From a phage, in NCBI GenBank assembly GCA_024875585.1, contig GCA_024875585.1_4107.1: a stretch of 64,000 nucleotides of DNA, one strand, 5' to 3'. Positions 1,401 through 41,267 of this stretch are shown here, piece by piece. Position numbers and translations under genes: made by a program. Positions within the stretch are counted from its first letter, which is position 1. Each line of letters begins with the position of its first letter. The notes under the pieces were generated by a model that did not search any database, was not told the origin of the DNA, and worked only from the letters and a program-made list of their open reading frames with translations.

Positions 1401-2045
1401 GTGATGACTAAGCAAGAAATATTCAAAACATTAATTGACATTTTACGTTCATCTAAAACTCGTTGTGCAATGGAGTTTGATATTCCTTACGCTGAACGAG
1501 TCATCTTTCCACAAGTAAAAGAGGCAGGGCTTACTTTACTTGGTATGGGGATGTACTCTGTAGTAGTTGAACATAAAAACTATCCAGGTCGTGCATTTAA
1601 AGTAACCACGTCACGATGGGATGGTTTTCGTGCTTATGCAAAGTACTGTATTGATAACACAGGAACTAAGTTTCTTCCTGTAATATACAGTGCAAATGAA
1701 CAAGGAAACTTTGGATGGTATGAAATGGATAAGTACTACCCTATCATTAAACAAAAAAATAATTATGATGACTTTGTTAGTACTAAAATTGGAGATTTGT
1801 ATTCGTATGCACATGCTGGTCAGCACGTAACTTCAGTGAATGAACTGCGTGGAAATTCAGAAGAGATTGCAATTGCAACTGTTGTAGCTAACATAATGAA
1901 AGAGTTTCATGGTCGTTTTGTACCAGACATTCATTCCAGTAATGTAATGATGGATAAAGATGGAAATTTATTCATCACTGACCCTATTTCGTGTGATGTA
2001 CGTCGAGAAATACCAATCACTGAAGAAGACCCAATTTTTTATTGA
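1401..2045 (+). CDS. atypical minimal protein-kinase-fold protein (RIO/Bud32/Kdo-kinase-like)
   Basis: G-loop-like LGMGMYSVV, AFKV lysine, catalytic-loop-like PDIHSSNVMM, LFITD in DFG position; ATG at 1404 after aaagga (GTG at 1401 also possible). Confidence 0.6.
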   Translation: MMTKQEIFKTLIDILRSSKTRCAMEFDIPYAERVIFPQVKEAGLTLLGMGMYSVVVEHKNYPGRAFKVTTSRWDGFRAYAKYCIDNTGTKFLPVIYSANEQGNFGWYEMDKYYPIIKQKNNYDDFVSTKIGDLYSYAHAGQHVTSVNELRGNSEEIAIATVVANIMKEFHGRFVPDIHSSNVMMDKDGNLFITDPISCDVRREIPITEEDPIFY

Positions 2046-2108
2046 CAGAACTTGTGTTCTGGTGTATATTAAGTGAATTATAAACAAATTGTGACACAGG
2101 ATTAAATC

Positions 2109-2390
2109 ATGCGTTCATTTGAAAACTTAATAGGTAAACTTCTTTTATCTGAAATTAGTGAAGACGTTAAGGAATTATGCAAATCAAAAAGTTACATTCA
2201 TTTGGATGAACTGTTTGTTAAGTACGGAGAGATTAGTTTTAAATCATTATTTGTTTTTACTATGAAAGTACATAGTTTAAAGTACTTCGATTTAAGTTAT
2301 AAAAATGGTCAACCAAATCTATATCATATGTATTATCTCAAGAATATAGAAGAAGCTCATATCTTATTTTCTGAATATCTGAAGGTATAA
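2109..2390 (+). CDS. hypothetical protein (93 aa)
   Basis: ORF in + strand gene train, abuts next gene. Confidence 0.6.
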   Translation: MRSFENLIGKLLLSEISEDVKELCKSKSYIHLDELFVKYGEISFKSLFVFTMKVHSLKYFDLSYKNGQPNLYHMYYLKNIEEAHILFSEYLKV

Positions 2391-2391
2391 A

Positions 2392-2730
2392 ATGGAACAA
2401 TATTTTGAATTAGTTAATAAAGTGTCATTCTATGTAGTGTCATTGGTTTGGGTTTATTTCATGTTTTGCTACATTATTGCATTCTTCCGATATACTACTT
2501 TATATGAACGTATCTATTATGATGCACCAATATCATTCTTGGTGTTCTGTGCATGTACCTGGGGAATATTAGAAGTACTGATATGTGGATATAGTACTGA
2601 TGAATTAAATCTGGTATCGGTATTGACTGGGTTATCACTTGGTGTTATGATATCTTTCTTTCCAGTATGGTTGTTCTTTGAACTGATCCATCGCATTGAT
2701 GTATGGCGTTCTAATATCCCTGAAAAATAA
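2392..2730 (+). CDS. family D small multi-pass membrane protein
   Basis: hydrophobic helices; basic tail ...WRSNIPEK; tandem with two paralogs. Confidence 0.75.
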   Translation: MEQYFELVNKVSFYVVSLVWVYFMFCYIIAFFRYTTLYERIYYDAPISFLVFCACTWGILEVLICGYSTDELNLVSVLTGLSLGVMISFFPVWLFFELIHRIDVWRSNIPEK

Positions 2731-2739
2731 GGATTGATA

Positions 2740-3081
2740 ATGATTTATTACACTAACGTGTTTGCCTATGCTGTTGCTTGCATTTACATTGTTTACTTCT
2801 TATTTGGTGGAGTGCTTTGCTTCTTTAAGTACAAAACACTGTTTAATAGGATGTATCCAAATCATCCTATTGTAGTTGTACTTTTGATTCTTTCTCTTTC
2901 CCAAATAATCGTTGAAACTACATTGGGTATCAGTAGTGTACATTATAGTTTTGGCACTATAGTAATTATTACTATGCTTATTGCATACATTTTAGTACTT
3001 GGATATGGTATATTTGGTAATGTTGGAATGAAAATGTATCATCGAATTAAAACCTTACGTGATAATCTACCGGAGCGTTAA
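2740..3081 (+). CDS. family D small multi-pass membrane protein
   Basis: ATG 2740 after aagga (track start 2734 is TTG); tail ...LRDNLPER. Confidence 0.75.
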   Translation: MIYYTNVFAYAVACIYIVYFLFGGVLCFFKYKTLFNRMYPNHPIVVVLLILSLSQIIVETTLGISSVHYSFGTIVIITMLIAYILVLGYGIFGNVGMKMYHRIKTLRDNLPER

Positions 3082-3082
3082 G

Positions 3083-3427
3083 ATGTATAATTTAAACCTA
3101 ATCTCATATATTATAACAACCCTGTTTACATTTTATGTCTATGTTGGTATAATCCTACTGTACTTTAAATTTTATAAAGTGTTTAACCGTTTCTATCCTT
3201 CAATGGAGAATGAGTTCTTCTTTGTGTTGTACGTCTGCTACACGCTAATGGCTACTTGTTTCACTGTAGTTGATGGTATCATTGGTATTAAAGCAGATGG
3301 ACCAAATGGTAGTACGCTGGTTGCATTTATTCTTACCGGATTCTTGGCAACTTATATTACCTTCATTTCAACATGGTCAGTGGTTGAATTTCTCTTACGA
3401 CTACGAAAGAATATGCCGAATCGATAG
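3083..3427 (+). CDS. family D small multi-pass membrane protein
   Basis: ATG 3083 after ggag; tail ...LRKNMPNR; track start 3059 overlaps previous gene. Confidence 0.75.
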   Translation: MYNLNLISYIITTLFTFYVYVGIILLYFKFYKVFNRFYPSMENEFFFVLYVCYTLMATCFTVVDGIIGIKADGPNGSTLVAFILTGFLATYITFISTWSVVEFLLRLRKNMPNR

Positions 3428-3436
3428 GAGACATAT

Positions 3437-3694
3437 ATGTTTGCATTGCGTAACAAAAACACTAAAGAATTATTATGTATTGATACAGTATGGGATTGTG
3501 CGGGTTCAACTACTGTTCTTGAAGAAGGTACTGGATATTGCGTGTTTGTTGTTCATGATAGGAATGAACTCGAATCATTGCTTGCTGAGTTTAATGCTGG
3601 TGGTAATCCTAACAGTACTAAATTCCCTGTGATTGTTAATCCAGCACCACCTGGTTCTTATGAAATTCTAACACTATGTGAGATGGATAAGTAA
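3437..3694 (+). CDS. hypothetical protein (85 aa), paralog of 5579..5848
   Basis: SD aggag; MFALRNKNTKE.. / ..VVHDRNELESLL resembles MYALYNKEKKQ.. / ..YVHDDVSVLQRLL. Confidence 0.7.
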   Translation: MFALRNKNTKELLCIDTVWDCAGSTTVLEEGTGYCVFVVHDRNELESLLAEFNAGGNPNSTKFPVIVNPAPPGSYEILTLCEMDK

Positions 3695-4074
3695 TGCGTC
3701 AAATGTACAAAGTGACCGAGCTAAACAAGCGTCTAGTTAAACAATCAATGTTCGAGGATAAAGAGTCTTATTATAACTTTAAACGTGCTGTAGAGGCTGC
3801 TATCCACATTCAGAAGCTTAAAGAACGTGGTTGTATTATTTTGGAAAATGGATCGGAAGTTGTATCGGATGACTTTAGTGTAGCGTTTGATGTTTCACCT
3901 GATGGGACGCTATCAATGCCCCGCTTAGGAACTGGAAACATGACTGTTTGGGTTGGCTTCACTATGGGTAATGTACCAGGCACAGTGTATGTAGATGATA
4001 TGGAGTTGAAAGAAAGCTTCAAAAACTTATCTTATCTTGAACCACAATACGCACATGAAATGAATTTATTTTGA
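3694..4074 (+). CDS. hypothetical protein (126 aa)
   Basis: TAATG overlap with upstream gene. Confidence 0.7.
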   Translation: MRQMYKVTELNKRLVKQSMFEDKESYYNFKRAVEAAIHIQKLKERGCIILENGSEVVSDDFSVAFDVSPDGTLSMPRLGTGNMTVWVGFTMGNVPGTVYVDDMELKESFKNLSYLEPQYAHEMNLF

Positions 4075-4075
4075 G

Positions 4076-4132
4076 TTGACAAACACATTCAGTACTGTAT
4101 AATGCTTATCAAGGGGATGAACTTCTCATCCC
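4076..4132 (+). promoter_or_regulatory. sigma70-type promoter + leader hairpin
   Basis: TTGACA(4076-81)-16nt-TATAAT(4098-4103) with cagtacTG; hairpin GGGGATGA-acttc-TCATCCC 4113-4132. Confidence 0.6.
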
Positions 4133-4150
4133 TACAATCGAGGAACGACC

Positions 4151-4705
4151 ATGATTACTTTTAAGAAAACTGCTAACCACATCCATGAAATCTACATTAA
4201 CGGTCACAAAGCTGGCCTTCTTCGTTTACTCAGCCATCATCCTGATGTTATTGTATCTGATAATGAACCCAAAGATTGGCGTGTCTTTTTCTTTGGGAAG
4301 TACAGTGATTTTCAAGTATCAAATCTGAAGAACATTCGTTCAGTATGCACGTTAACTGAAATTAAAGAAAAGTTAGTAAAAGCATTGAAAACTAATCCAG
4401 ATGCAGTTCTTCCACCAGATAACTTTGTAGAGAAAGGTTATGCCTTAGCTCATTTCAAAGATGGCACTATTCAATCTATCAGCACTGCATATGAATATCA
4501 ATGGACTGAGTACTTCACTTATGGCTCCCGTGAAACTTTGATGGCTTCACGTAGTGAATTGGAAGAAGTAATAACTATTATAAATGAACGTGAACGTCAT
4601 TTATATGATAAACCTGAAATGTGGAGTTCAAATTACATTGACCGTATTGACTATGTTATTATGACTCCAATCTTTGACACTGCTTACTATGATTCTTTGA
4701 AATAA
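4151..4705 (+). CDS. hypothetical protein (184 aa)
   Basis: SD gaggaa; clean ORF. Confidence 0.8.
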   Translation: MITFKKTANHIHEIYINGHKAGLLRLLSHHPDVIVSDNEPKDWRVFFFGKYSDFQVSNLKNIRSVCTLTEIKEKLVKALKTNPDAVLPPDNFVEKGYALAHFKDGTIQSISTAYEYQWTEYFTYGSRETLMASRSELEEVITIINERERHLYDKPEMWSSNYIDRIDYVIMTPIFDTAYYDSLK

Positions 4706-4716
4706 GGATAACTTAT

Positions 4717-4893
4717 ATGAAACTACGTACTCGTAATCGTTTGATGGATGCACTGTACCACGAACAATGTACAATGAATGATGTAAAGCGTCAGTTAATG
4801 TATACATATCAGTTACCAGCCCGTGCTGCGAAACAACGTTCCAAAGAATTACTGAAAGAAGCTATCGAGTACTGGGAATCTGATTCGTACTAA
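4717..4893 (+). CDS. hypothetical small protein (58 aa; below ORF-track cutoff)
   Basis: ATG 4717 after taaggat; MKLRTRNRLMDALYHEQ...EYWESDSY; fills an otherwise empty gap. Confidence 0.5.
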   Translation: MKLRTRNRLMDALYHEQCTMNDVKRQLMYTYQLPARAAKQRSKELLKEAIEYWESDSY

Positions 4894-4932
4894 TATTACG
4901 TGATATGTCACGTTAATTAAGTGAGACTATAA

Positions 4933-5193
4933 ATGAAAATTTTATTAGTTCTAATACTACTAATACTACTAATTGTTTTACCATTTACTTTAGTATCTCC
5001 TGAACTTGCATGGAATGTGTTTGTGTACTTAGTATGTACTATTGCGGTAAATGGTATCTTGTTCTTAGTTCTATTCATAAATGGAATAGGACACGGGGGT
5101 GGGTGGACCAGTACTGCTGATATTGTACATAAAACCACTATGTCTTTATTTGTAGTGTGGAATTTATTCTGGACTTGGTTTGTGTTCTTCTAA
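4933..5193 (+). CDS. small membrane protein (86 aa)
   Basis: very hydrophobic, 3 predicted TM runs; stop directly abuts next ATG. Confidence 0.65.
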   Translation: MKILLVLILLILLIVLPFTLVSPELAWNVFVYLVCTIAVNGILFLVLFINGIGHGGGWTSTADIVHKTTMSLFVVWNLFWTWFVFF

Positions 5194-5577
5194 ATGAAAA
5201 AAAATATGAATATAGATTTGAAAGGTGCAACCAGAACTGTTATCCTCATTGGTGAATACGCTATCAAGATTCCAACCTTCAAAAGCTGGAAGTTATTCTT
5301 AACGGGAATGATAGCTAACCTAAATGAACGTTCGTGGATGCAGTACTCCAATCGTAGTGACAGTAGTATCTGTCCTACGTTGTGGTCATCATGTACTGGA
5401 CTAATAACTGTACAGAAACGTTGTAAGCCAGTACAACATAGGGGTTTATTTTGGGTGGAGTTGTGTGCTTTAGCATTGAATTCTGAGTTAAGTATTGACT
5501 TCTTCTATTCAGATGCGAAGCCAGAAAACTTTGGGTATCTGGGTGGTAAGTTAGTTAAACTTGATTATGGAGATTAA
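5194..5577 (+). CDS. minimal kinase-fold protein ending right after the DFG-like motif
   Basis: GATRTVILIGEYAIKIP (G-loop + Lys), SDAKPENFGY (D-x-K-P-x-N catalytic loop), KLDYGD (DFG-like) then stop. Confidence 0.55.
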   Translation: MKKNMNIDLKGATRTVILIGEYAIKIPTFKSWKLFLTGMIANLNERSWMQYSNRSDSSICPTLWSSCTGLITVQKRCKPVQHRGLFWVELCALALNSELSIDFFYSDAKPENFGYLGGKLVKLDYGD

Positions 5578-5578
5578 T

Positions 5579-5848
5579 ATGTACGCATTGTATAATAAAG
5601 AAAAGAAACAATTTGCTAAGGTTGAAATTTCGATTGATACATTTGATATGTTGGAGTACTGTATTGTAACGGACCCATGTGCTAACTTGTATTACGTTCA
5701 TGATGACGTATCAGTACTGCAACGATTGCTTGAGAGTTCAAAAAGTCAATGTCAGGGAATCCATGATGGTTCATCCTATGAAACTCCTGAGTGTTCATAT
5801 GGCTGTCTGGATGGATATGAGATTGTTAAGTTAGGGATCGTTGAATAA
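5579..5848 (+). CDS. hypothetical protein (89 aa), paralog of 3437..3694
   Basis: ATG 5579 after ggag; track start 5561 overlaps upstream gene. Confidence 0.65.
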   Translation: MYALYNKEKKQFAKVEISIDTFDMLEYCIVTDPCANLYYVHDDVSVLQRLLESSKSQCQGIHDGSSYETPECSYGCLDGYEIVKLGIVE

Positions 5849-5850
5849 AG

Positions 5851-5887
5851 AAAAGGGTTGACTTTAGTCAGCCCTTTTTTCTATAAT
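5851..5887 (+). promoter_or_regulatory. bifunctional terminator hairpin / promoter
   Basis: aaaagggttgac-ttta-gtcagcccttttt; TTGACT(5858-63)-18nt-TATAAT(5882-87); near-identical copy at 10530. Confidence 0.6.
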
Positions 5888-5915
5888 CATTTCATCGGAA
5901 CGGAAGGATGTTGAA

Positions 5916-6398
5916 ATGAACTATTTAGATTTAATTAATACGTATGTCATCAGCCCATATCTTAACGATGAAAGTATCAAATGTGTAGTATCTGTTGATA
6001 ATCATCCAAATGGTGCATTAGAACTATTCGGTGCAGGACAGATTAACAATCGTTGTGGGTATACTTTTGAGTACTTACCAGAAAGAGATGTATTTGGTTG
6101 TTATGACCACAAAATCAAAAAAGGTGCTATATGGGGTAATCACAAAGATATTGCACAATCTTCACTTTTCGAAGATCATAATGGATATATGTGGCGTTCT
6201 CTTGGTGCAGTCCTACTTGATATCGCCCGTAGATATAAAAAGCGTATAACTCTTACTTATACACATACAGTTGAATATAAAAATGAAGTACAAGTAGAAG
6301 ATGAAGAATTTTTTAAAAGTATCCCGTACATTGAATTCAACTTCCAAAACGGGTATGCTATATATCCTGATGATTTTATTGGTGAAAAATATTTTTAA
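5916..6398 (+). CDS. hypothetical protein (160 aa)
   Basis: SD ggaagga; clean ORF. Confidence 0.8.
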   Translation: MNYLDLINTYVISPYLNDESIKCVVSVDNHPNGALELFGAGQINNRCGYTFEYLPERDVFGCYDHKIKKGAIWGNHKDIAQSSLFEDHNGYMWRSLGAVLLDIARRYKKRITLTYTHTVEYKNEVQVEDEEFFKSIPYIEFNFQNGYAIYPDDFIGEKYF

Positions 6399-6405
6399 AA
6401 AATAT

Positions 6406-6433
6406 TTGAAAAGAAAAGAATAAGTGCTATAAT
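6406..6433 (+). promoter_or_regulatory. sigma70-type promoter
   Basis: TTGAAA(6406-11)-16nt-TATAAT(6428-33), then ttacatcaagacaac leader as at other promoters. Confidence 0.5.
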
Positions 6434-6489
6434 TATTACATCAAGACAACAAACACTAACATGTAAACGCTACTAATTAGGAGACACAC

Positions 6490-6900
6490 ATGATTAACAA
6501 ACATTTCGCAGTTTCTAAAACAGTAACCATCGATAACGAATGGGAAATTACTATTCTTAATGATCCTGCTCGTGGGTTGCTTGCAGAGAATCTTGTACAG
6601 AAATACATCGACTGTAAGTCTGAATTGATTATTCACGACCGTACCAAATTTCTTCTCATCAATGGCAAGAAGTGTAAAGTATTAGTATTCACGGATAAAA
6701 TGAGCCGTGCAGACATTATCACCAAATTGGTAAGTTCTTCACGTCACCGCCCAGGAGTTAACAAATCTATCGAAGAAGTTAAAGATATGAAGCCTGGTGA
6801 TTTATTCATTATTGCGGGTTTTGATTCTAAAACAAGAGAAATGTACATTTCAGAAATGTACACTAATGCTGAAATGCGTAACAAATTCTTCTCTAACTAA
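6490..6900 (+). CDS. hypothetical protein (136 aa)
   Basis: SD taggag; clean ORF. Confidence 0.75.
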   Translation: MINKHFAVSKTVTIDNEWEITILNDPARGLLAENLVQKYIDCKSELIIHDRTKFLLINGKKCKVLVFTDKMSRADIITKLVSSSRHRPGVNKSIEEVKDMKPGDLFIIAGFDSKTREMYISEMYTNAEMRNKFFSN

Positions 6901-6931
6901 TCAACCTAATTATGTATTATACAAATCTATA

Positions 6932-8149
6932 ATGGATAAAAATATGATCTTCGAAACAGAAAAAACTTTACTTGAAACTTATACTTTAGAAAATCTTGTA
7001 CAACTTAATCTGGCCCGTCCTGATATTCAACGAAACTGGCAATGGAAAAGTAATAATCAAAATAATCTTATAATTTCTATTCTAAAGAATTCACCAATTG
7101 GACAATTTTTGGTATGGAATGAAACTTCTTCAAATACAATGTACATTACTGATGGACGCCATCGTTATACTGTAATTTCAAACTTCATTAATAATAAGTT
7201 CCCAGTAACAGTTAAAACCGAAAGTGGAACCAAAGATTATTATTATGGTTCTGACGATCCAATCGAAGAAGAAAACATTTCACTAAAACTTGGTGGTAAA
7301 AGTAAGACTTGGAATTTCTTATCAAAAGAAGAGCGTAATGCTTTTCGCAATAAAGAAGTATCAGTAACATTTGTTCATACAGATGATGCTGAGAAGATTT
7401 CTGAAATGTTTATGGCTATCAACACTGCTTCATCTAATTTGTGTAAAGTAGACTTGCTGGTATGCAAGCACCACAAAAATGCATACATGAAACGTATTGA
7501 TAAACTATTTTCAATTGAGATTGAAAAAGATGACCAAATGGCAGTTCTAGTTAGCGATTTCTATCGTGCAATCGGACACTGTAATGTCAACGGTAATTAC
7601 GAGAAACATTTAGCTAAACTTAAAGCTAACCCAAAAGTTCAGAAGCGTGAATTTTTTGAGATGTATTTTATGGTACGAGCCTTCACCAAATTGTGTCGTG
7701 ATGCTTTAAACGATACATTGAATTCATATCGTATGCCTAAGATGAATAAACAAATTGAAGATGCTATTATTAGTACTGAATCACTGAGTGAACAGCAAGC
7801 TAACGCCGATTTTGTTCAGTTCGTGAATGCAGTTCGTGAGATGAACCTTGTATCTCCAATAAAAGATTTACAAAAGTTTCAATTCATCCACGAAGATATG
7901 AAGAATACCTTTAACAAGCGTCTTTTTTGTATCTTAATGGGATTATATTATGCTTACGGTACACGTTTACCATTGCATTTTCGTGATGTTTGGTGTGCCA
8001 TTTATAATGAAATGTCAGAAAAAAGTACTGAACTACCAACAAACGGGACTGATAGTTCTTCTGCTATTGTAGCTGGTATCCAATTGATTGAACCGTACTT
8101 TAGTTCAGCCTTTAATAATATTTCATTGAGTGCTCGCGTGGGAAAGTGA
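6932..8149 (+). CDS. DUF262 (ParB/Srx-fold, GmrSD N-terminal-like) domain protein
   Basis: PDIQRNWQW, LIISILKNSPIGQFLVW, ITDGRHRYTVISNFI match the DUF262 FQR..W / PIG / DGQQR pattern; start at first ATG after stop of 6490..6900. Confidence 0.7.
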   Translation: MDKNMIFETEKTLLETYTLENLVQLNLARPDIQRNWQWKSNNQNNLIISILKNSPIGQFLVWNETSSNTMYITDGRHRYTVISNFINNKFPVTVKTESGTKDYYYGSDDPIEEENISLKLGGKSKTWNFLSKEERNAFRNKEVSVTFVHTDDAEKISEMFMAINTASSNLCKVDLLVCKHHKNAYMKRIDKLFSIEIEKDDQMAVLVSDFYRAIGHCNVNGNYEKHLAKLKANPKVQKREFFEMYFMVRAFTKLCRDALNDTLNSYRMPKMNKQIEDAIISTESLSEQQANADFVQFVNAVREMNLVSPIKDLQKFQFIHEDMKNTFNKRLFCILMGLYYAYGTRLPLHFRDVWCAIYNEMSEKSTELPTNGTDSSSAIVAGIQLIEPYFSSAFNNISLSARVGK

Positions 8150-35061: not shown

Positions 35062-35082
35062 CTAGTAATAAGGAATAAAATC

Positions 35083-35424: not shown

Positions 35425-35438
35425 TATTAAAAAATAGT

Positions 35439-35528: not shown

Positions 35529-35548
35529 ACTAACAGAGAGAAAACAAA

Positions 35549-35761
35549 ATGGCTAATATCTGCACTGTACTGAAAAATGCAAAACAAGTTTTATTTTCTG
35601 ATCACGATCATTTAAACAAGGATATTACTGGCGTTCGGAATATCAAAGATGTAAAACGTGTTATGGGTATCTATTGCAATATGAAACGTGTCGGCACGTT
35701 CGGTAATAAATTTCTATACCAGGCGGGGGATTACAATTTTACACTGACTATCATTAACTAA
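35549..35761 (+). CDS. hypothetical small protein (70 aa)
   Basis: SD agagag. Confidence 0.75.
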   Translation: MANICTVLKNAKQVLFSDHDHLNKDITGVRNIKDVKRVMGIYCNMKRVGTFGNKFLYQAGDYNFTLTIIN

Positions 35762-35840
35762 AAATATTATCACAGTACTATTGACATAGATTGATAGTAC
35801 TGGCATAATAGATTTTATTAAAACAACTGAGGAAATTAAA
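35762..35840 (+). repeat. promoter cassette, copy 3 of 4
   Basis: TTGACA 35781-86, CATAAT 35804-09; near-identical to 32806-32885. Confidence 0.7.
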
Positions 35841-36020
35841 ATGGCTATCATCGCAAAAACTGAAATCATCGGCCTGGATTCTATCATCATGACGTTTGAA
35901 GATCAAAAAGGTATGTATGTAGTTTCCTATGGTGATTATGTTCGGGAGTATGAAACGGTAGACGAAGCCTTTGAAAGTTACATTCGCCAGGTGAATAAAG
36001 CATACGACGATTACCGCTAA
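35841..36020 (+). CDS. hypothetical small protein (59 aa; below cutoff), paralog of 32886..33098
   Basis: MAIIAKTEIIGLDSII... Confidence 0.65.
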   Translation: MAIIAKTEIIGLDSIIMTFEDQKGMYVVSYGDYVREYETVDEAFESYIRQVNKAYDDYR

Positions 36021-36030
36021 AATATATTAC

Positions 36031-36075
36031 CAGTACTATCAAAGCTATTGACAACGTTTGATAGTACTGTATAAT
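36031..36075 (+). promoter_or_regulatory. promoter enclosed by 13-bp inverted repeat
   Basis: CAGTACTATCAAA(36031-43)...TTTGATAGTACTG(36057-69); TTGACA 36048-53, TATAAT 36070-75. Confidence 0.6.
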
Positions 36076-36121
36076 AAGTTTTATCAACTGTAGTTAACTT
36101 AACAAAAGAGAGAGAAACAAA

Positions 36122-36265
36122 ATGATCGCACTGGATTCATTCATCGATGCAGTTCTGGCAAAAACTGGCGAGGATCTGACCGCAGAACAATACGCAATGA
36201 TCGAGCAATGCCAGCAAGACGGTAAATCGGTGAAAGATACTGTTAAGATTATCCGCAAGATGTAA
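36122..36265 (+). CDS. hypothetical small protein (47 aa; below cutoff)
   Basis: SD agagagag; MIALDSFIDAVLAKTGEDL... Confidence 0.55.
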   Translation: MIALDSFIDAVLAKTGEDLTAEQYAMIEQCQQDGKSVKDTVKIIRKM

Positions 36266-36272
36266 GATTATA

Positions 36273-36300
36273 AGCCCATTAGTTAACGCTGGTGGGCTTT
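36273..36300 (+). terminator. terminator-like hairpin
   Basis: agcccat-tagttaacgctg-gtgggct + tt. Confidence 0.5.
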
Positions 36301-36371
36301 AATCATTTACCCTATACAATGCCAGTACTAAACCGTTTATCTCGTTAGAATGCATTACAGGACGTTTGACA

Positions 36372-36569
36372 ATGATTAGCATGAAATCAGTACAAAAACA
36401 AATAGAAACATTATCAAAAATTAAACGTAAACAGTACTCATTAGAATATAATATCAATGGTAACTATCATCTAATGAAAGAGAATAATTTTATCGTCATT
36501 GATGAATCATTGCAAATTATTAGTATAGTACTGAAAGCATTAATTAATGATAGAAAAAGGTTAAAATAA
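36372..36569 (+). CDS. hypothetical small protein (about 65 aa)
   Basis: first ATG of the ORF (track start 36366 is TTG); weak SD. Confidence 0.5.
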   Translation: MISMKSVQKQIETLSKIKRKQYSLEYNINGNYHLMKENNFIVIDESLQIISIVLKALINDRKRLK

Positions 36570-36826
36570 TGGCAGTAGGATTCGCGAAAGATGGAGCCGA
36601 GCAAGATGAGATTAACGCAGTTATTCAAGCCGCCGTTAACCACGCTAGAAAGCAAATTAACGCACAAATAGAATCACTGATACATTGCCTCGACTGCGGC
36701 GATAAAATCCCTGAGAATCGCCGACAGGCTGTTAAGGGATGTAAGTACTGCATAACCTGCCAGGAAGATCATGATAGTACTTTTAAAAGAGATCCGCGTA
36801 ATTGTTGGCATAGATCTATGAGATAA
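36569..36826 (+). CDS. TraR/DksA-family C4 zinc-finger protein
   Basis: CLDCGDKIPENRRQAVKGCKYCITCQ matches C-x2-C-G-x2-IP-x2-RR...C-x2-C. Confidence 0.75.
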   Translation: MAVGFAKDGAEQDEINAVIQAAVNHARKQINAQIESLIHCLDCGDKIPENRRQAVKGCKYCITCQEDHDSTFKRDPRNCWHRSMR

Positions 36827-36833
36827 AAAGTAA

Positions 36834-36861
36834 TTGACAGTACTGAAAGATAGTGTATAAT
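36834..36861 (+). promoter_or_regulatory. sigma70-type promoter
   Basis: TTGACA(36834-39)-16nt-TATAAT(36856-61). Confidence 0.6.
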
Positions 36862-36890
36862 GTTTTATATCTTAACTGAGGATAGAAATC

Positions 36891-37247
36891 ATGGGAATAC
36901 AACATATCACGCGGACCACTGACAATGGCGAGATCACTGGTTATCAAGTACAGGGCAAAGTAGCACAATTGCAGTACTGGTTTGTTAAACGTGGAATCAT
37001 TGCACCGGATCTTGATTATGACCGTGTAGCGTTTATTGATTCTCTTTATGTTGATCCTGATAGTCGGGGCAATGGTGAAGGTAACGAATTAATGAATGCC
37101 TTTATTGATGCTGCCGATGATTCAGATTGTATCATTTTAGAATGCGATACGGGAGAAGATAACGCCTTCAATCTTAAAGAATGGTACGAAGGTTTCGGAT
37201 TCGAAGTACTGATCGATAGTGAATATCCTATCATGATTTTATCATAG
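36891..37247 (+). CDS. GNAT-family N-acetyltransferase
   Basis: LYVDPDSRGNGEGNELMNAF (R-G-x-G-x-G motif A) and WYEGFGFE. Confidence 0.6.
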   Translation: MGIQHITRTTDNGEITGYQVQGKVAQLQYWFVKRGIIAPDLDYDRVAFIDSLYVDPDSRGNGEGNELMNAFIDAADDSDCIILECDTGEDNAFNLKEWYEGFGFEVLIDSEYPIMILS

Positions 37248-37261
37248 TACTAAAAAAGTAA

Positions 37262-37318
37262 TTGACAGTACTATCAGATAGTGTATAATGTTTTACATAG
37301 AGGGGAAACATCTTCCCC
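37262..37318 (+). promoter_or_regulatory. sigma70-type promoter + leader hairpin
   Basis: TTGACA(37262-67)-16nt-TATAAT(37284-89); ggggaa-acatc-ttcccc 37302-18. Confidence 0.65.
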
Positions 37319-37336
37319 TACTAAGAGGAAATGAAA

Positions 37337-37525
37337 ATGGAAAAATTATCAAGTATTTTAGTACAAGATGATTTTGGTAATCCTGGAAGTGCTATCATTG
37401 TTCGGGGTAATAAAGCAACGTTTGTTATTGCTGGTGGACCTGTACAGCGTAGCATTAAAAACAATGCTGTTACTATTAATAATGTACGCTATCGCTTAGA
37501 TAAAGAATTGATTCATAAACTTTAA
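37337..37525 (+). CDS. hypothetical small protein (62 aa)
   Basis: ATG 37337 has better SD spacing (aagagga) than 37331. Confidence 0.7.
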   Translation: MEKLSSILVQDDFGNPGSAIIVRGNKATFVIAGGPVQRSIKNNAVTINNVRYRLDKELIHKL

Positions 37526-37532
37526 AAAGTAC

Positions 37533-37622
37533 TTGCAATTAGTTTTTAGTACTGTATAATAGTTTACATGAAAGGCAACGGGAAGTTTAAAAACTTCCCT
37601 AAAGGGGGAAATGATTCTCCCC
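37533..37622 (+). promoter_or_regulatory. early-type promoter + tandem leader hairpins
   Basis: TTGCAA(37533-38)-16nt-TATAAT(37555-60); hairpin A 37580-99; hairpin B 37604-22. Confidence 0.65.
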
Positions 37623-37640
37623 ACTAAGAGGAAAGAAAAA

Positions 37641-37853
37641 ATGCAAGGTCAACTAATCGTTCGTAAATGGTCTGATACTAATGAAAAACCGTGGGATGTA
37701 CAATACATCGGACCGGATGGGGTATCACGTTATCAGCCAGGCGTAACGCATAGTACTGAGCAATATGCCGCCGCTCATCGTGAACGCCTGTTAGAATCTA
37801 TGCAACAGGGTTTAGGTGAAAAATTCATTCAAGATCATTGGCTGAAAGATTAA
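37641..37853 (+). CDS. hypothetical small protein (70 aa)
   Basis: ATG 37641 after aagagga. Confidence 0.75.
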   Translation: MQGQLIVRKWSDTNEKPWDVQYIGPDGVSRYQPGVTHSTEQYAAAHRERLLESMQQGLGEKFIQDHWLKD

Positions 37854-37860
37854 AAAGTAC

Positions 37861-37920
37861 TTGTGTAGTATAGAAAATAAAGTATAATGTTTAATACAGG
37901 AAGGGGAATAGTTCCCCTCC
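37861..37920 (+). promoter_or_regulatory. early-type promoter + leader hairpin
   Basis: TTGTGT(37861-66)-16nt-TATAAT(37883-88); ggaaggggaa-tag-ttcccctcc 37899-920. Confidence 0.6.
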
Positions 37921-37939
37921 TAACAAAAAGGAAAGTAAC

Positions 37940-38113
37940 ATGATTCATGTAGAATTGTCAGTACTGAGAGATTTGTTTTATCGGATGGGTACTACTGGCG
38001 AATATCCGAAGGGTGATACTGCAAAACTTTTTGTATCTCTCGACTTATGGCAACGCGAACAATTAGTAATGTCGTGGCGTAAAGGTAAAGCAGATCGCGA
38101 GGTGAAAGCATGA
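37940..38113 (+). CDS. hypothetical small protein (57 aa; below cutoff)
   Basis: ATG 37940 after aaagga; MIHVELSVLRDLFYRMG... Confidence 0.55.
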   Translation: MIHVELSVLRDLFYRMGTTGEYPKGDTAKLFVSLDLWQREQLVMSWRKGKADREVKA

Positions 38114-38259
38114 AAGAATTTTTATTCGAAGTAGTTTTTATTGGTGTAAGTAGTCACCAATTGATTCGCTCAAGTGGTTATAATGTTTGCCAGGCATGGA
38201 ATAACATTAAACAAATGTACCCGAACGCTATCACATATCGCAACCCAAAACAAGTTTAA
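38110..38259 (+). CDS. hypothetical small protein (49 aa; below cutoff)
   Basis: ATGA overlap with 37940..38113; MKEFLFEVVFIGVSSHQ... Confidence 0.5.
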   Translation: MKEFLFEVVFIGVSSHQLIRSSGYNVCQAWNNIKQMYPNAITYRNPKQV

Positions 38260-38270
38260 AAATAATTAAA

Positions 38271-38307
38271 AAAAGGATTGACTTCGGTCAGTCCTTTTTG
38301 CTATTAT
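38271..38307 (+). promoter_or_regulatory. bifunctional terminator hairpin / promoter
   Basis: aaaaggattgac-ttcg-gtcagtcctttt; TTGACT(38278-83)-18nt-TATTAT(38302-07). Confidence 0.6.
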
Positions 38308-38313
38308 ATATTC

Positions 38314-38370
38314 ATTGAGAGATAGCTCACTGACCCATAGGGTGCGGAAGTGTATCTATTATATGCTGGT
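38314..38370 (+). ncRNA. candidate short transcript with CCCAC-type core
   Basis: attcattgagagatagctcactgaCCCATAGGGTGCGGAAGTGTATCtattatatgc; core 38334-45. Confidence 0.35.
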
Positions 38371-38412
38371 GGGTGTATTATCTAGTACTGAAAACTATTT
38401 GATAAAAAGTAC

Positions 38413-38440
38413 TTGCATTGTACTTAGAATCAAGTATAAT
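38413..38440 (+). promoter_or_regulatory. early-type promoter driving structured leader
   Basis: TTGCAT(38413-18)-16nt-TATAAT(38435-40). Confidence 0.6.
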
Positions 38441-38446
38441 GTTTTA

Positions 38447-38526
38447 CATCAGGACGGGGAACGAAATAAGTAAATCCCTGTTAAGTAGCCCAGGAGTAAG
38501 GCATACGAAAAACTCCCCTGATAAAA
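38447..38526 (+). ncRNA. structured leader / candidate RNA motif (three-way junction), copy 2
   Basis: same P1/P3 as copy 1; P2 acgggga/tccctgt re-pairs with a shifted G-U. Confidence 0.45.
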
Positions 38527-38530
38527 TAGT

Positions 38531-38559
38531 TTGACAATAATTTTAAGTACTGATAAAAT
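38531..38559 (+). promoter_or_regulatory. second promoter after structured leader
   Basis: TTGACA(38531-36)-17nt-TAAAAT(38554-59). Confidence 0.45.
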
Positions 38560-38591
38560 AATCACATCAACTACTGATAAGGAAACATAAA

Positions 38592-38867
38592 ATGCGGGTT
38601 CTTCTGACAGCTAACGAAATCGAGCAAGTACTTACTACTAACCTGGAACAATGGAAACGTGAAGCAGATATCCAGGCGGTTCAATTGTTAAATGAGAAGT
38701 TAACGCCGGATGATTTAAGTAAGATTGTAGATCCTCAATTCTACGAAGATATTCACGACACCGCGTTAAGCGTCGAGGATGTACTAGATAAGCACTACAT
38801 TGATACTAATTTACAGGGTTACGGTCGTAAAAATTTTATTACTATTCACGACATTTACAATAATTAA
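38592..38867 (+). CDS. hypothetical protein (91 aa)
   Basis: SD taagga. Confidence 0.8.
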   Translation: MRVLLTANEIEQVLTTNLEQWKREADIQAVQLLNEKLTPDDLSKIVDPQFYEDIHDTALSVEDVLDKHYIDTNLQGYGRKNFITIHDIYNN

Positions 38868-38870
38868 GTA

Positions 38871-38931
38871 TTGACAAAGTATCTTAGTACTGTATAATAG
38901 TTTACATCAAGTGAGGGGAATGGTTCCCCTC
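38871..38931 (+). promoter_or_regulatory. sigma70-type promoter + leader hairpin (cassette copy 1 of 3)
   Basis: TTGACA(38871-76)-16nt-TATAAT(38893-98); gaggggaa-tgg-ttcccctc 38913-31. Confidence 0.65.
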
Positions 38932-38952
38932 CTAACAAAGAGAGAAATAAAA

Positions 38953-39135
38953 ATGGCTAAGTGCACTATCTGTAAGAAAGAAATCGTATTAGTTCCAAGT
39001 GCCCGTGAGCGTGCCGCTCGGTTCGGTGGCAAAGCGTCAGACTATACAAAAATGTTTACTACTCATGCAAATTGCCAGGTAGCAAAACGTTCACAAGAAA
39101 GCGTAGAATTAATGCGTAAACTTTCCAAAAAATAA
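38953..39135 (+). CDS. hypothetical basic Cys-containing small protein (60 aa)
   Basis: ATG 38953 after agagag; MAKCTICKKEIVL...HANCQVAKR. Confidence 0.7.
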   Translation: MAKCTICKKEIVLVPSARERAARFGGKASDYTKMFTTHANCQVAKRSQESVELMRKLSKK

Positions 39136-39138
39136 GTA

Positions 39139-39200
39139 TTGACAAAGTATCTTAGTACTGTATAATAGTTTACATCAAGTGAGGGGAAACGGTTCCCCTC
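39139..39200 (+). promoter_or_regulatory. sigma70-type promoter + leader hairpin (cassette copy 2 of 3)
   Basis: TTGACA(39139-44)-16nt-TATAAT(39161-66); gaggggaa-acgg-ttcccctc 39181-200. Confidence 0.65.
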
Positions 39201-39221
39201 CTAACAAAGAGAGAAATAAAA

Positions 39222-39545
39222 ATGACTATGATCCTTGCCCAGAAAGTAGAACTGAAAATTGTAACTTCCTTTGACATTAAAGTTAATCGCTGGACTGATC
39301 GGAACGGTAATACTTACCACTCTTGCTACGTGTCTGCATTGATTGGTGATCGTTGGGAAGACTTGGGACACGAAACCTTTACATACGGTTATGGTACGCA
39401 AGGCGAATACACTGGTTTGGAGATCATTAAAGAAACCGTTATAGGTTTCAACCCGAAAGAAAAAGTTATTCACCGCATCGAAAAAGAGATTAACAAAGAA
39501 ATAACAGTTCGCTACTACGATGTAAAACGTAAGAAAGACATGTAA
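39222..39545 (+). CDS. hypothetical protein (107 aa), paralog of 33181..33525
   Basis: see 33181; shared tail DVKRKKD(L/M). Confidence 0.85.
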   Translation: MTMILAQKVELKIVTSFDIKVNRWTDRNGNTYHSCYVSALIGDRWEDLGHETFTYGYGTQGEYTGLEIIKETVIGFNPKEKVIHRIEKEINKEITVRYYDVKRKKDM

Positions 39546-39557
39546 TAGAATCCATTT

Positions 39558-39596
39558 AAAGTACTATTTGACATTACACAGATAGTACTTTATAAT
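39558..39596 (+). promoter_or_regulatory. promoter embedded in 10-bp inverted repeat
   Basis: AAAGTACTAT(39558-67)...ATAGTACTTT(39582-91); TTGACA 39568-73 -17nt- TATAAT 39591-96. Confidence 0.6.
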
Positions 39597-39640
39597 AGAC
39601 TCTAACTTGTAGTACTAACTTAACTAATAGGATGTATACC

Positions 39641-40036
39641 ATGATTACTAAATTCTACGCTACCCGTGAAGCTGCCCGTATTGTTGCACGCGAGGAAGGA
39701 GCGGCATTTAAAGACATGGGCAAAGATGCACCGAAAGGCCAACGCTGGAGCGTACAGTTCAAAGAAATCTCTGATATTGTGAATTCACCTGAACCAGTAC
39801 TGACAGCAGCAGAACAGAAGAAAGCTGATGAACTGGCGGCAATTCTTAACGCTCAAGATGAATTCGTCGAGGGTGCTGATATCCAGGTTGTAGTAAATTC
39901 GAATGCATGGACTCACGCGGATCATCTGGCTAACCTGAAGCGTCCAAGCGTACTGATTCGCAACCAGAAAGAGATCCGTCATGACCGTAAGGGTAATCGT
40001 GTAACAGTATACAGTAAACGCCGCCAGGTTATCTAA
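39641..40036 (+). CDS. hypothetical protein (131 aa), paralog of 27521..27787
   Basis: MITKFYATREAARIVAREEGAAFKDMG...HDRKGNRVTVYSKRR. Confidence 0.8.
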   Translation: MITKFYATREAARIVAREEGAAFKDMGKDAPKGQRWSVQFKEISDIVNSPEPVLTAAEQKKADELAAILNAQDEFVEGADIQVVVNSNAWTHADHLANLKRPSVLIRNQKEIRHDRKGNRVTVYSKRRQVI

Positions 40037-40058
40037 TAACTTGCAGTTCTAACAACAC

Positions 40059-40083
40059 GGCGGGATCTGTTCCCGCCTTTTTT
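40059..40083 (+). terminator. intrinsic terminator
   Basis: ggcggga-tctgt-tcccgcc + tttttt. Confidence 0.7.
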
Positions 40084-40098
40084 ACAGGATAAACTAAA

Positions 40099-40353
40099 AT
40101 GATTAAGGTAAAACTATCTAAAGATAATATCTTGCGGGTACACTATAAAGCCCCTCAGAGAATCATCACAAAGGCCGTACAGCTTGCGAATGAGTTTATT
40201 AATGGTAATCTATTACCTAGGAAGTTAAGCAACGGAAAACTGCGTGTAATCGATGTAGACACTAACAACAGAATAGTAATAGAGAATACCGGAAAGATAA
40301 ACCTATATGAACACCAACAATATAATAAGAAAATAAAACTAATTAGTCGTTGA
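40099..40353 (+). CDS. hypothetical protein (84 aa)
   Basis: SD cagga. Confidence 0.7.
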   Translation: MIKVKLSKDNILRVHYKAPQRIITKAVQLANEFINGNLLPRKLSNGKLRVIDVDTNNRIVIENTGKINLYEHQQYNKKIKLISR

Positions 40354-40378
40354 CAGTACTCAAATGTTTTAGTACTAT
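40350..40378 (+). promoter_or_regulatory. sigma70-type promoter
   Basis: TTGACAGTACTcaaatgttttAGTACTAT; -10 TACTAT 40373-78; duplicated at 40627. Confidence 0.5.
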
Positions 40379-40407
40379 ATATCTATACCAACACGGAGAG
40401 AAACAAA

Positions 40408-40626
40408 ATGAAATTATCTAAAATCGAAAAGAAAACTATTGACGTAGCTATCCAACATGGTTACACATTTCGTAATGATTTACATTTTACCAATTTTCAA
40501 CAAGGGTATCGTACTATTAAAAAACTAATTGACAAAGGTTTATTAGTTAAAGTAGACAACGGCAACGGCGTTGAATATCAACCAACACAGGACGCATTTA
40601 ATTTTAAGAAATATAATATTATCTAA
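40408..40626 (+). CDS. possible winged-helix DNA-binding protein (72 aa)
   Basis: ...YRTIKKLIDKGLLVKVDNGNG... resembles a wHTH recognition helix plus wing; weak. Confidence 0.7.
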   Translation: MKLSKIEKKTIDVAIQHGYTFRNDLHFTNFQQGYRTIKKLIDKGLLVKVDNGNGVEYQPTQDAFNFKKYNII

Positions 40627-40655
40627 TTGACAGTACTCAAATATTTTAGTACTAT
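40627..40655 (+). promoter_or_regulatory. sigma70-type promoter (duplicate of 40350)
   Basis: TTGACA(40627-32)-17nt-TACTAT(40650-55). Confidence 0.5.
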
Positions 40656-40682
40656 ATCTATACCAACACAGGAAAAAACAAA

Positions 40683-41267
40683 ATGCGTAATTATACTAAA
40701 TTCATCCGTACACTGTCAGAAATGGAAACCAACAAAGAGATCTTGACAGCTTGTCGGTTAGCTGGTCTGGAGATCATCGGTGCGGGGTCTTCCCGTATTG
40801 TATTCGCTTTAAATGATCGGTTAGTGATTAAGGTCGCGAATTGTGATGCAGGTGTAGAACAAAATGAAACAGAATGTAAAGTATGGAATTTTTTAGATTA
40901 TGACCGCCCTCAGTTGAAACAGTTCTTTGCTAAAGTACATATGCATTTAAGCGATCCTGATAATATGTTTATTGTTATGGATCGGTTGAGTACTGCAAGT
41001 AAAGGCAGTGTAAAGCACGTTAATGCGTGCAACGAATTAAAGTACAATATTAAACGTAATGCCATTGAACGCCAACACCGCTTTGCTGATGCACTACAAC
41101 ACGTAGATGATACATTATCAACACTAACGATTAGAGATATCAGAAAACAGAATATCGGCCAGGATCGAAATGGACTGATTAAAGTACTTGATTATGGTTT
41201 AACCCGCAATATCTGGAATCAGTACTATAAAAAGCGTGATGTAGCAGCAAGTAAGGTAACACGATAA
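40683..41267 (+). CDS. atypical minimal protein-kinase-fold protein
   Basis: GAGSSRIVFALNDRLVIKVAN (G-loop + VIK Lys), IRDIRKQNIG (D-x-x-x-x-N), KVLDYGL (DFG-like). Confidence 0.65.
   Translation: MRNYTKFIRTLSEMETNKEILTACRLAGLEIIGAGSSRIVFALNDRLVIKVANCDAGVEQNETECKVWNFLDYDRPQLKQFFAKVHMHLSDPDNMFIVMDRLSTASKGSVKHVNACNELKYNIKRNAIERQHRFADALQHVDDTLSTLTIRDIRKQNIGQDRNGLIKVLDYGLTRNIWNQYYKKRDVAASKVTR

Follow-up and report, generated by a model that had tools for sequence, protein, structure and literature searches.

We analyzed three genes in a 64,000-nucleotide stretch of phage DNA (contig GCA_024875585.1_4107.1; the whole stretch is hereafter called the window), whose products, P1, P2, and P3, bear the signatures of protein kinases. 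The new part among the three is P2: this 127-aa protein represents a large, unrecognised family of kinase cores of ~120 residues that end at the DFG motif. On the other hand, P1 and P3 are ordinary, since kinase labels for both already exist in GenBank and in the literature. Altogether, we lean, albeit not strongly, toward the view that the three are stand-alone phosphotransferases with the protein-kinase-like (PKL) fold from two phage lineages, which most likely play an early role in host takeover or anti-defence.

Three kinase-fold proteins in an Asteriusvirus genome fragment

Megablast of positions 1-8000 of the window returned 41 phage records, the best being those of Asteriusvirus jumbo coliphages of ~350 kb with 87-96% identity (ph0011, UE-S1, SP27, G17, Sharanji, 121Q, and PBECO4). 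Thus, judging from sequence similarity, the window is a piece of the genome of a jumbo myovirus of the 121Q/PBECO4/G17 type (Asteriusvirus). The open reading frames (ORFs) described in the initial annotation were all found on the + strand, at 1401-2045 (P1, 214 aa), 5194-5577 (P2, 127 aa), and 40683-41267 (P3, 194 aa), with the quoted motifs in the kinase order and the key residues conserved in homologues. They are not chance ORFs, since they matched PHROG profiles with E-values of 2e-88, 6e-45, and 2e-42, respectively, and the ratio of nonsynonymous to synonymous substitution rates (dN/dS) was 0.05-0.07 for each. All three genes are under purifying selection.

In each of the three family alignments, the beta3 Lys, the Asp and Asn in the catalytic loop, and the metal-binding Asp never varied, so that the orthologues retain the catalytic Lys and Asp and, with them, the residues required for Mg-ATP binding and phosphate transfer. 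Kinase folds were recovered by AlphaFold2 (AF2) modelling and Foldseek searches for P2 and by a profile search for P3, and P1 was recognised by its homology to the kinase of phage T7, gp0.7 (T7K), so that the initial proposal of three minimal kinase-fold proteins held. The helical core of the C-lobe (alphaF onward) is not present after the DFG motif in P1, P2, or P3. As had been noted, all three stop within about 25 residues of the DFG-like motif: the C-terminus lies 20 residues past the Asp in P1, 3 in P2, and 24 in P3, and it is here that they part from every solved kinase. When the HMMs (hidden Markov models) of the three families were run against the 376 ORFs of the window (stop to stop, all six frames, 50 aa or longer), no further member was found, and the sole cross-matches were those of the P2 profile to P3 (E 0.009) and the P1 profile to P3 (E 0.1).

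P2 represents a large family of kinase cores ending at DFG

P2 was recognised as an ultra-minimal kinase-fold protein from its ORF, PHROG match, AF2 model, and family statistics. Along the + strand, the gene encodes the glycine loop (G11-x-T13-R14; 5224-5235), the beta3 Lys (K25; 5266-5268), alphaC (N42..E45; 5317-5328), the catalytic loop (D107-A-K-P-E-N112; 5512-5529), and D124-Y-G126 (5563-5571), and the stop codon stands at 5575-5577. An alternative ATG at 5206, which gives a protein of 123 aa as annotated in relatives including 121Q, may be the start. P2 matched positions 36-167 of the 225 positions in phrog_4301 with an E-value of 6e-45, while no match was found in Pfam, NCBIfam, or PADLOC.

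When 1.84 billion representatives were searched exhaustively with the family HMM, at least 1,280 clusters (50% identity) were recovered at E<=1e-3, including 715 at E<=1e-10. Among the 175 members retrieved, the median length was 123 aa, and the C-terminus was located within 5 residues of the DFG Asp in 83% and within 10 residues in 90%. By tblastn, homologues of the same length were detected in T4-like phages (JS10, IME341, and Bas45), the N4-like phage phi G17, the phiKZ-like phage OBP, the siphovirus PaMx25, myoviruses of 89 kb and 145 kb, and other jumbo phages (Erwinia, Ralstonia, and Aeromonas). These data bear on the question, raised in the initial annotation, of whether the 127-aa form is a truncated pseudogene, and on the related idea that part of a longer kinase gene was mis-called as P2. 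Its abrupt end 3 residues past the DFG Asp and the next ORF opening 1 nt after the stop codon would be in line with such an origin. Nevertheless, a length of ~120 aa and the D-Y-G end turned out to be the family norm, in phages as different as T4-like, N4-like, and phiKZ-like ones; dN/dS against 121Q was 0.067, and the genes downstream are unrelated between phages. With the family median, the 83% of members ending at most 5 residues past the Asp, and the dN/dS value altogether, we consider the pseudogene explanation effectively refuted and the question settled. The ~120-aa short form is, as judged from these comparisons, the functional and selected form of the P2 family.

Genes of this kind occur more than once in some other genomes. 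Two tblastn places each were found for P2-type genes in Shewanella phage SXP01 and Aeromonas phage PS1, and Pectobacterium phage CBB yielded structural matches of 194 aa and 168 aa. Multiple copies of the P2 or PHROG 4301 type per genome thus recur outside Asteriusvirus. The homologue in SXP01 is annotated as a 'putative virion structural protein'.

In the alignment of 29 sequences, G11, K25, E45, D107, N112, and D124 were invariant. Across 176 sequences (the 175 members plus the window protein), G11, R14, and G114 were each conserved in 173, K25 in 174, E45 in all 176, D124 in 175, and K109 in 153. Position 107 is occupied by Asp in 127/176 and Glu in 46/176, and position 112 by Asn in 128/176 and Ser in 44/176. 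The full K-E-D-N-D set was found in 122/176, the window P2 included. In a group that we term 'KEESD' (40/176), E-N-K-x-D-S replaces D-x-K-P-E-N. P2 could, in principle, be non-enzymatic, i.e., an ATP- or nucleotide-binding module (pseudokinase, regulator, or sponge) that binds a host protein or a signalling nucleotide. The altered catalytic loop of the KEESD sub-family fits this idea, small phage proteins often act by stoichiometric binding, and the missing C-lobe core (alphaF and the spine anchors) could make P2 catalytically incompetent. However, pseudokinases usually lose one or more of the catalytic residues, whereas the K-E-D-N-D set is kept in the sub-family to which the window P2 belongs, and the Lys, Glu, and DFG Asp are each retained in at least 174 of the 176 sequences. 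Thus, we regard a non-enzymatic P2 as distinctly improbable.

A few members of the family carry up to 187 residues past the DFG motif, or N-terminal extensions, without a recognisable domain, and one (P0207) bears an N-terminal DUF5522. No informative Pfam match to a C-lobe or a fused domain was found in the longer members (153-313 aa), and their tails are unlike activation segments. The proteins noted around the KEESD and extension variants are P0121, P0160, P0182, P0193, and P0203.

Current annotation hardly recognises the family. Among 125 diverse members, none matched Pfam kinase models at E<=0.05 save for one weak match to PIP49_C, and the cut-offs of the Pfam and NCBIfam kinase models were reached by none. 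Only two of the P2 homologues among the GenBank records listed carry a kinase label (pEa_SNUABM_5 and AH04), and the orthologue in Sharanji (WNN14422.1) is labelled "hypothetical"; the Sharanji paper lists two kinases, not three (PMC11895373). Likewise, the search for kinases in the BASEL collection in the T7K paper reported only T7K homologues and P1 Doc (PMC13645617). We found a P2 homologue of 126 aa (bas45_0262; 41% identity, E 4e-23) in a BASEL phage, PaulHMueller (Bas45). Our literature searches, which included PHROG 4301 and PF27024 and left most subscription journals outside their coverage, found no description of the P2-type family.

The P2 model lacks everything beyond the DFG motif

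The AF2 model of P2, built with 29 homologues, had a pLDDT of 89.8 and a pTM of 0.80. Its elements are arranged in the order of b1-b2-b3, a long helix, b4-b5, a second helix (residues 83-96), a short turn, and two strands ending at residue 122. The model thus corresponds to a kinase N-lobe followed by alphaE, the catalytic loop, and b7-b8, ending at DFG with neither the activation segment nor alphaF-alphaI. It matched kinase folds over ~112 of the 127 residues, with fold-match scores of 8.6 for APH(2''), 8.4 for JAK, 8.1 for PknB, 8.0 for BRAF, 7.6 for both Rio2 and Bud32, 7.3 for ArkI, and 6.9 for OspG. Every solved kinase chain matching the model is longer than P2, including OspG (169 residues) and ArkI (173 residues). 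A Foldseek search against BFVD gave 37 matches at E<=1e-3; phage proteins of 117-273 aa came first, among them the P3 orthologue from RaK2, and protein kinases of giant viruses and herpesviruses followed. At the level of sequence, the 29-sequence profile found nothing relevant among PDB sequences, and the 125-sequence profile found only sub-threshold matches to TTK/Mps1 (E 0.36-1.1), whose alignments lay at the catalytic loop and DFG.

The fold comparison leaves room for another substrate class. Instead of a protein, P2, and perhaps P3, might phosphorylate small molecules, nucleotides including those used in signalling, or RNA/DNA at an end or a 2'-OH. Kinases of this sort are known for aminoglycosides and, in archaea, for tRNA (ArkI). 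APH is the top fold match of P2, and the model has no activation segment or alphaG region by which a peptide would be bound. On the other hand, D-A-K-P-E-N, or D-x-K-P-E-N, is the form of the catalytic loop in Ser/Thr protein kinases, and its Lys is kept in 153 of the 176 sequences. Furthermore, small-molecule kinases use a large helical C-lobe for the substrate, which is absent in P2. Taking the flanking genes described below into account as well, we consider a non-protein substrate unlikely, though the least so among the alternatives to a protein kinase.

Genes flanking P2 differ among phages

In the window, the TAA of the upstream gene (5191-5193) abuts the ATG of P2 (5194), and another ATG (5579) opens 1 nt after the stop codon of P2, so that translation of P2 is coupled to that of both neighbouring genes. 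A perfect sigma-70-like promoter (TTGACA-16-TATAAT; 12/12 in a consensus scan) at 4076-4103 on the + strand heads the packed block of 4151-5848 that contains P2. No Pfam match was found in the genes flanking P2 in the window.

For a broader survey, the ORFs within 2.5 kb of a P2 homologue were clustered for 21 loci from 15 independent lineages, and a scan of viral contigs for more loci returned 10. No neighbour was conserved across the 15 lineages, beyond denV in two and a DUF4326 protein in two, and the genes adjoining the P2 homologue differed in every phage inspected. The homologue in JS10 stands directly upstream of RNA ligase 2 (rnlB; 2477-3854 of locus L002). denV is adjacent in PaMx25, where the P2 homologue overlaps the denV start (2402-3312 of L005), and lies two genes downstream in 121Q. 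In Bas45, the P2 homologue is found ~900 bp upstream of a tRNA gene cluster (2507-4354 of L027). Genes for DUF4326, HD_4, Dam, and Asn_synthase proteins were also encountered near the homologue in some phages. Proximity to nucleic-acid genes is a suggestive pattern, although not one that holds from phage to phage. It lends weak support to a nucleic-acid substrate for P2, and the absence of a neighbour conserved across the 15 lineages speaks against the non-protein substrates considered above.

The same survey is pertinent to the possibility that P2 is one half of a split kinase, with a second protein of phage or host origin supplying the C-lobe in trans. The alphaE segment of P2 (G84-LFWVELCALAL) is strongly hydrophobic, and alphaE is buried against alphaF and alphaH in full kinases; the translational coupling on both sides would also suit a pair of subunits. 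Nevertheless, AF2 folds the P2 monomer confidently by itself (pTM 0.80), and no neighbour is common to the 15 independent lineages, which speaks against a C-lobe partner encoded in cis next to P2. A split kinase, perhaps with a host-encoded partner, is a very remote prospect in our judgment.

The similarity of the window to 121Q ends at about 5896, where 121Q and Sharanji possess the gene for endonuclease V/pyrimidine-dimer glycosylase (denV). The ORFs that replace denV in the window (5916-6398 and 6490-6900) have no Pfam match. They are followed by the gene for a protein of ~450 aa (6797-8149) with a GmrSD_N (DUF262) domain (1.4e-17) and a weak match to DndB. The region of 5897-8149 resembles an accessory cassette that has been exchanged.

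P2 and P3 are distant homologues, and P1 belongs to a separate lineage

The initial annotation regarded the three genes as paralogues. In pairwise BLASTP, the similarity among P1, P2, and P3 was insignificant, being confined to weak local matches in the vicinity of the catalytic loop and DFG, and we rejected recent paralogy on this ground. Profile comparison by hhalign, in contrast, linked P2 and P3 with a probability of 91.4% (E 9e-7), which rose to 96.4% (E 1.2e-9) with 125 sequences, over 118 columns from end to end. The glycine loop, Lys, N-x-x-E, catalytic loop, and D-Y-G were all aligned in register, and both proteins belong to PHROG 4301. Their consensus is composed of G-x-[ST]-R-x-V, the beta3 Lys, N-x-x-E, D-x-[KR]-x-x-N-x-G, and D-Y-G; the [ST]-R-x-V glycine loop, the N-x-x-E in alphaC, and the N-x-G after the catalytic loop are common to the two beyond the generic kinase motifs. 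The P1 profile showed no significant similarity to the P2 or P3 family (probability of about 2% or less), and neither P2 nor P3 matched the T7K family (PHROG 2828/15752). Altogether, the window holds two kinase lineages, T7K (P1) and PHROG 4301 (P2 and P3). P2 and P3 are ancient, distant homologues that constitute two sub-families, one widely and the other narrowly distributed among phages, instead of the products of local duplication. Paralogy thus stands for P2 and P3 in a distant sense, and fails for P1.

The initial annotation also saw an unusual cluster of three copies. This impression was not borne out, as P3 is located 35 kb away from P1 and P2, in the region corresponding to the terminal repeat of relatives, and the three genes are therefore not a local duplication cluster. 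What remains unusual is P2, while the Sharanji orthologues of P1 and P3 are called kinases in print (PMC11895373).

A local duplication was found elsewhere. Between P1 and P2, three tandem paralogous genes (2392-3427) encode small proteins (112, 115, and ~114 aa) that are hydrophobic and probably membrane-located, and every one is closed by a similar R-x-N-[ILM]-P-[EN]-[KR] tail. In BLASTP, the first matched the second with 31% identity (E 9e-11), and the second matched the third with an E-value of 5e-6. In contrast to the three kinases, this trio is a real local duplication.

P3, a jumbo-phage kinase in the terminal-repeat region

P3 was assigned as a kinase-fold protein specific to jumbo phages from its ORF, PHROG and profile matches, and the annotation of its relatives. 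Following an N-terminal helical extension of ~30 aa, it possesses the glycine loop (G33-x-G35-S-S-R38; 40779-40796), the beta3 Lys (K50; 40830-40832), alphaC (N61..E64; 40863-40874), the catalytic loop (D152..N157; 41136-41153), and D170-Y-G172 (41190-41198), all on the + strand, and then a tail of 24 aa. G35-S-S-R38, K50, N61, E64, D152, N157, and D170-x-G172 were invariant in 12 sequences, and dN/dS was 0.053. P3 matched positions 12-185 of phrog_4301 (2e-42). It also matched Pfam Pkinase (PF00069) with an E-value of 1.3e-3 and 18.6 bits, below the gathering threshold of 31.7 bits. A profile of 12 homologues hit 342 PDB sequences at E<=10, and protein kinases accounted for 60/60 of the matches listed; the best was MKK4 (2.7e-4), in an alignment that began ahead of alphaE and covered the catalytic loop and DFG. 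The mean pLDDT of the AF2 model was 68.6, with 84-94 for residues 1-100 and 41-61 beyond. In NCBIfam/PADLOC, P3 weakly matched the PD-T4-6 defence-system kinase (E 1.3e-4), which we read as generic kinase similarity.

Homologues of P3 were found only in jumbo phages of the RaK2/121Q/GAP32 type. The orthologues are labelled 'putative protein kinase' in Muenster (HHpred 6J5T, 99.9%), Munch, and K64-1, and "PRP4" in fEgEco12, and the orthologues of both P1 and P3 have been called kinases for the sister phage Sharanji (PMC11895373). P3 is thus not novel as a kinase.

In Muenster, the P3 orthologue resides inside the annotated repeat_region 1-20030, a terminal repeat of 20,030 bp. The G17 record contains the P3 orthologue twice (4252-4833 and 354398-354982), 350,146 bp apart, in keeping with a terminal repeat of about 20.7 kb; the terminal repeat of Sharanji is 20,668 bp (PMC11895373). 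P3 looks like a single-gene transcription unit, because a sigma-70-like promoter matching the consensus (TTGACA-17-TACTAT; 40627-40655, + strand) ends 28 nt upstream of its start and a terminator-like hairpin with a 12-bp stem, read from the sequence (41279-41306, + strand), follows 12 nt after its stop codon. G17 has a terminator annotated directly downstream of its P3 orthologue.

The region of 38500-43000 contains 25 promoter-like sites, compared with 16.7 +/- 4.4 in shuffled sequences. Four of them are 12/12 TTGACA-16/17-TATAAT sites, which are intergenic and on the + strand (38871, 39139, 39568, and 41715). Small + strand genes are densely packed in this region, many with their own near-perfect sigma-70-like promoter and hairpin. 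From these consensus matches and by analogy with other phages, we infer that the 4.5-kb region around P3 may be an early block read by the host polymerase. By extrapolation from G17, the promoter-dense region would span roughly 24.8-45.5 kb of the window, and it corresponds to the direct terminal repeat of ~20.7 kb in G17, Sharanji, and Muenster. A physical end of the genome, extrapolated from the relatives, may thus be near 45.5 kb of the window.

P1, a T7K-type kinase without the shutoff domain

P1 was identified as a T7K-type protein kinase domain without the shutoff domain from its ORF, PHROG and tblastn matches, and residue conservation. The motifs on the + strand are the glycine loop (G48/G50; 1542-1550), the beta3 Lys (K67; 1599-1601), the catalytic loop (D176..N181; 1926-1943), and the DFG-like D194-P-I (1980-1988). 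The length of 214 aa is counted from a GTG at 1401. The ATG at 1404, with AAGGA 7 nt upstream, gives 213 aa, which is the length of most P1 homologues, and is more likely the true start.

P1 matched phrog_15752 ('protein kinase; inhibitor of host transcription...') with an E-value of 2.2e-88 and phrog_2828 ('serine-threonine kinase') with that of 2.8e-17. tblastn returned 872 phage records, mostly T7-like podoviruses annotated as possessing Ser/Thr kinases. The match to T7 itself was 26% identical over residues 41-197 (E 3e-4), and those to KP32-type kinases had E-values of about 1e-15. No match was found to Pfam Pkinase (PF00069), NCBIfam, or PADLOC, while P1 homologues carry the precomputed Pfam accession PF27024, an entry absent from the Pfam copy scanned. 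Among 20 homologues down to 38% identity, G48, G50, K67, D176, H178, N181, T193-D194, and then P195 were invariant. The DFG-like motif is D194-P195-I196 in P1, D-P-L/I in homologues, and D-P-V in T7K. The C-terminal shutoff (DNA-binding) domain is not present, as P1 stops 20 residues past the Asp, with a conserved acidic tail (R-E-I-P-x-T-E-x-D-P) after the motif. dN/dS was 0.052.

The counterparts of P1 are annotated as 'protein kinase' in 121Q and UE-S1 and as 'putative protein kinase' in G17, and WNN14432.1, which occupies the position of P1 in Sharanji, is called a T7 kinase homologue in the genome paper (PMC11895373). T7K homologues have been found in jumbo phages via PHROG 2828, with Escherichia phage G17 named, and the jumbo-phage clade was described as having lost the shutoff domain and as having the valine of DPV absent or less conserved (PMC13645617, Nature 2026). 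The D-P-I of P1 is compatible with this sub-branch. P1 thus represents the jumbo-phage branch of T7K with the kinase domain only, a known kind whose branch had been noticed. Its assignment to the PKL fold follows from homology to T7K only.

The gene upstream of P1 (93-1334) encodes an acidic, low-complexity protein of 413 aa with no Pfam match, which is labelled 'structural protein', 'virion structural protein', or 'chromosome segregation protein' in relatives. A terminator-like hairpin read from the sequence (GGTTGAC-TTCG-GTCAGCC plus a T run; 1339-1375, + strand) follows this gene. It is overlapped by a sigma-70-like site on the + strand just upstream of P1 (TTGACT-18-TATCAT with a TG extension), which is a consensus match only.

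Possible functions of the three proteins

We propose that P1, P2, and P3 would all be catalytically active and would be made early from host sigma-70 promoters, P3 from the terminal-repeat region. By analogy to T7K, they may phosphorylate host, and perhaps phage, proteins for takeover or counter-defence. P2 would favour protein substrates, as its D-A-K-P-E-N has the Ser/Thr-protein-kinase form. P2 is also predicted to be constitutively active, because it has no activation segment. Since alphaF-alphaI are missing, P2 would be loosely specific, or dock on its target, or self-associate for stability, in the latter cases covering the hydrophobic alphaE. T7K phosphorylates most host and phage proteins and disarms many defence systems, retron and DarTG among them, and the promiscuity and targets of its jumbo-phage homologues were stated to be untested by the authors themselves (PMC13645617).

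Several observations weigh against this proposal. The promoter-like sites in 1-6500 were not above those in shuffled sequences (26 vs 30.5 +/- 5.1), and the promoters and terminators called in the window are consensus matches only. The nucleic-acid enzymes and genes adjoining some P2 homologues (rnlB in JS10, denV in PaMx25 and 121Q, and the tRNA cluster in Bas45) hint at a different substrate. Roughly one in four sequences of the wider P2 family has Glu for the catalytic Asp (46/176) and Ser for the Asn (44/176), and the chemistry may differ in this part. The C-terminal half of the P3 model is of low confidence, and our literature searches found no assay of ATP binding or phosphotransfer on the orthologues of P1, P2, or P3. 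To our knowledge, a kinase without the helical C-lobe core is unprecedented, and the autonomous activity of P2 is not assured. We hold only tentatively, at somewhat less than even chances, the more specific claim that the P2 family comprises autonomous, active kinases of ~120 residues without the C-lobe core, i.e., the smallest kinase domain and a minimal catalytic unit.

If the claim is true, P2 would be the smallest kinase domain known and may be a widespread enzyme for host takeover or counter-defence. The family ends at DFG and yet keeps the catalytic residues, raising the question of whether the C-lobe core is needed for catalysis at all, and P2 offers a test object of 120 residues for kinase catalysis. 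The question can be approached in E. coli K-12, as Bas45 in the BASEL collection carries a homologue and grows on this strain. As a second and far more widespread lineage of phage kinases, which current kinase annotation misses, the P2 lineage would widen the picture of defence disarming drawn from T7K (PMC13645617).

Comparison with known systems

The top fold match, APH(2''), is a protein of ~300 aa with a large helical, substrate-binding C-lobe that is absent from P2; the identity was only 14-16%, and no sequence-profile match between the two was found. RIO, Bud32, and ArkI are cellular proteins that act on the ribosome or tRNA machinery and match P2 at the fold level only. They keep part of the helical C-lobe, and their catalytic loop is H-x-D-x-x-x-x-N, not D-x-K-P-E-N. 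The initial annotation likened the three proteins to RIO/Bud32/Kdo kinases. The likeness is apt in that the proteins are short after DFG, but understates P2, as RIO/Bud32/Kdo kinases keep a partial C-lobe.

OspG, NleH1, HopBF1, and ArkI are the nearest named analogues in size. Their solved chains comprise 160-176 residues, P2 is about a quarter shorter, and the resemblance is at the fold level only. OspG, NleH, and HopBF1 keep helices after DFG, whereas P2 has none. These three are type III effectors acting in eukaryotic host cells, unlike the phage protein P2, and no sequence relationship between them and P2/P3 was found among the PDB sequence matches listed.

Over residues ~40-200, P1 can be aligned with T7K as well as with hundreds of T7-like kinases, and it has the D-P-x variant of DFG typical of this family. 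It differs from T7K in having the conserved acidic tail in place of the shutoff/DNA-binding domain, at 26% identity, and the T7K homologues of jumbo phages likewise possess no C-terminal shutoff domain (PMC13645617). PHROG 4301, the family of P2 and P3, carries no functional annotation. Based on sequence profiles and models, we assign PHROG 4301 here to the kinase fold, with a core form of ~120 aa (P2 type) and a jumbo-phage form of ~194 aa (P3 type), and a kinase-fold label can be given to the whole family.

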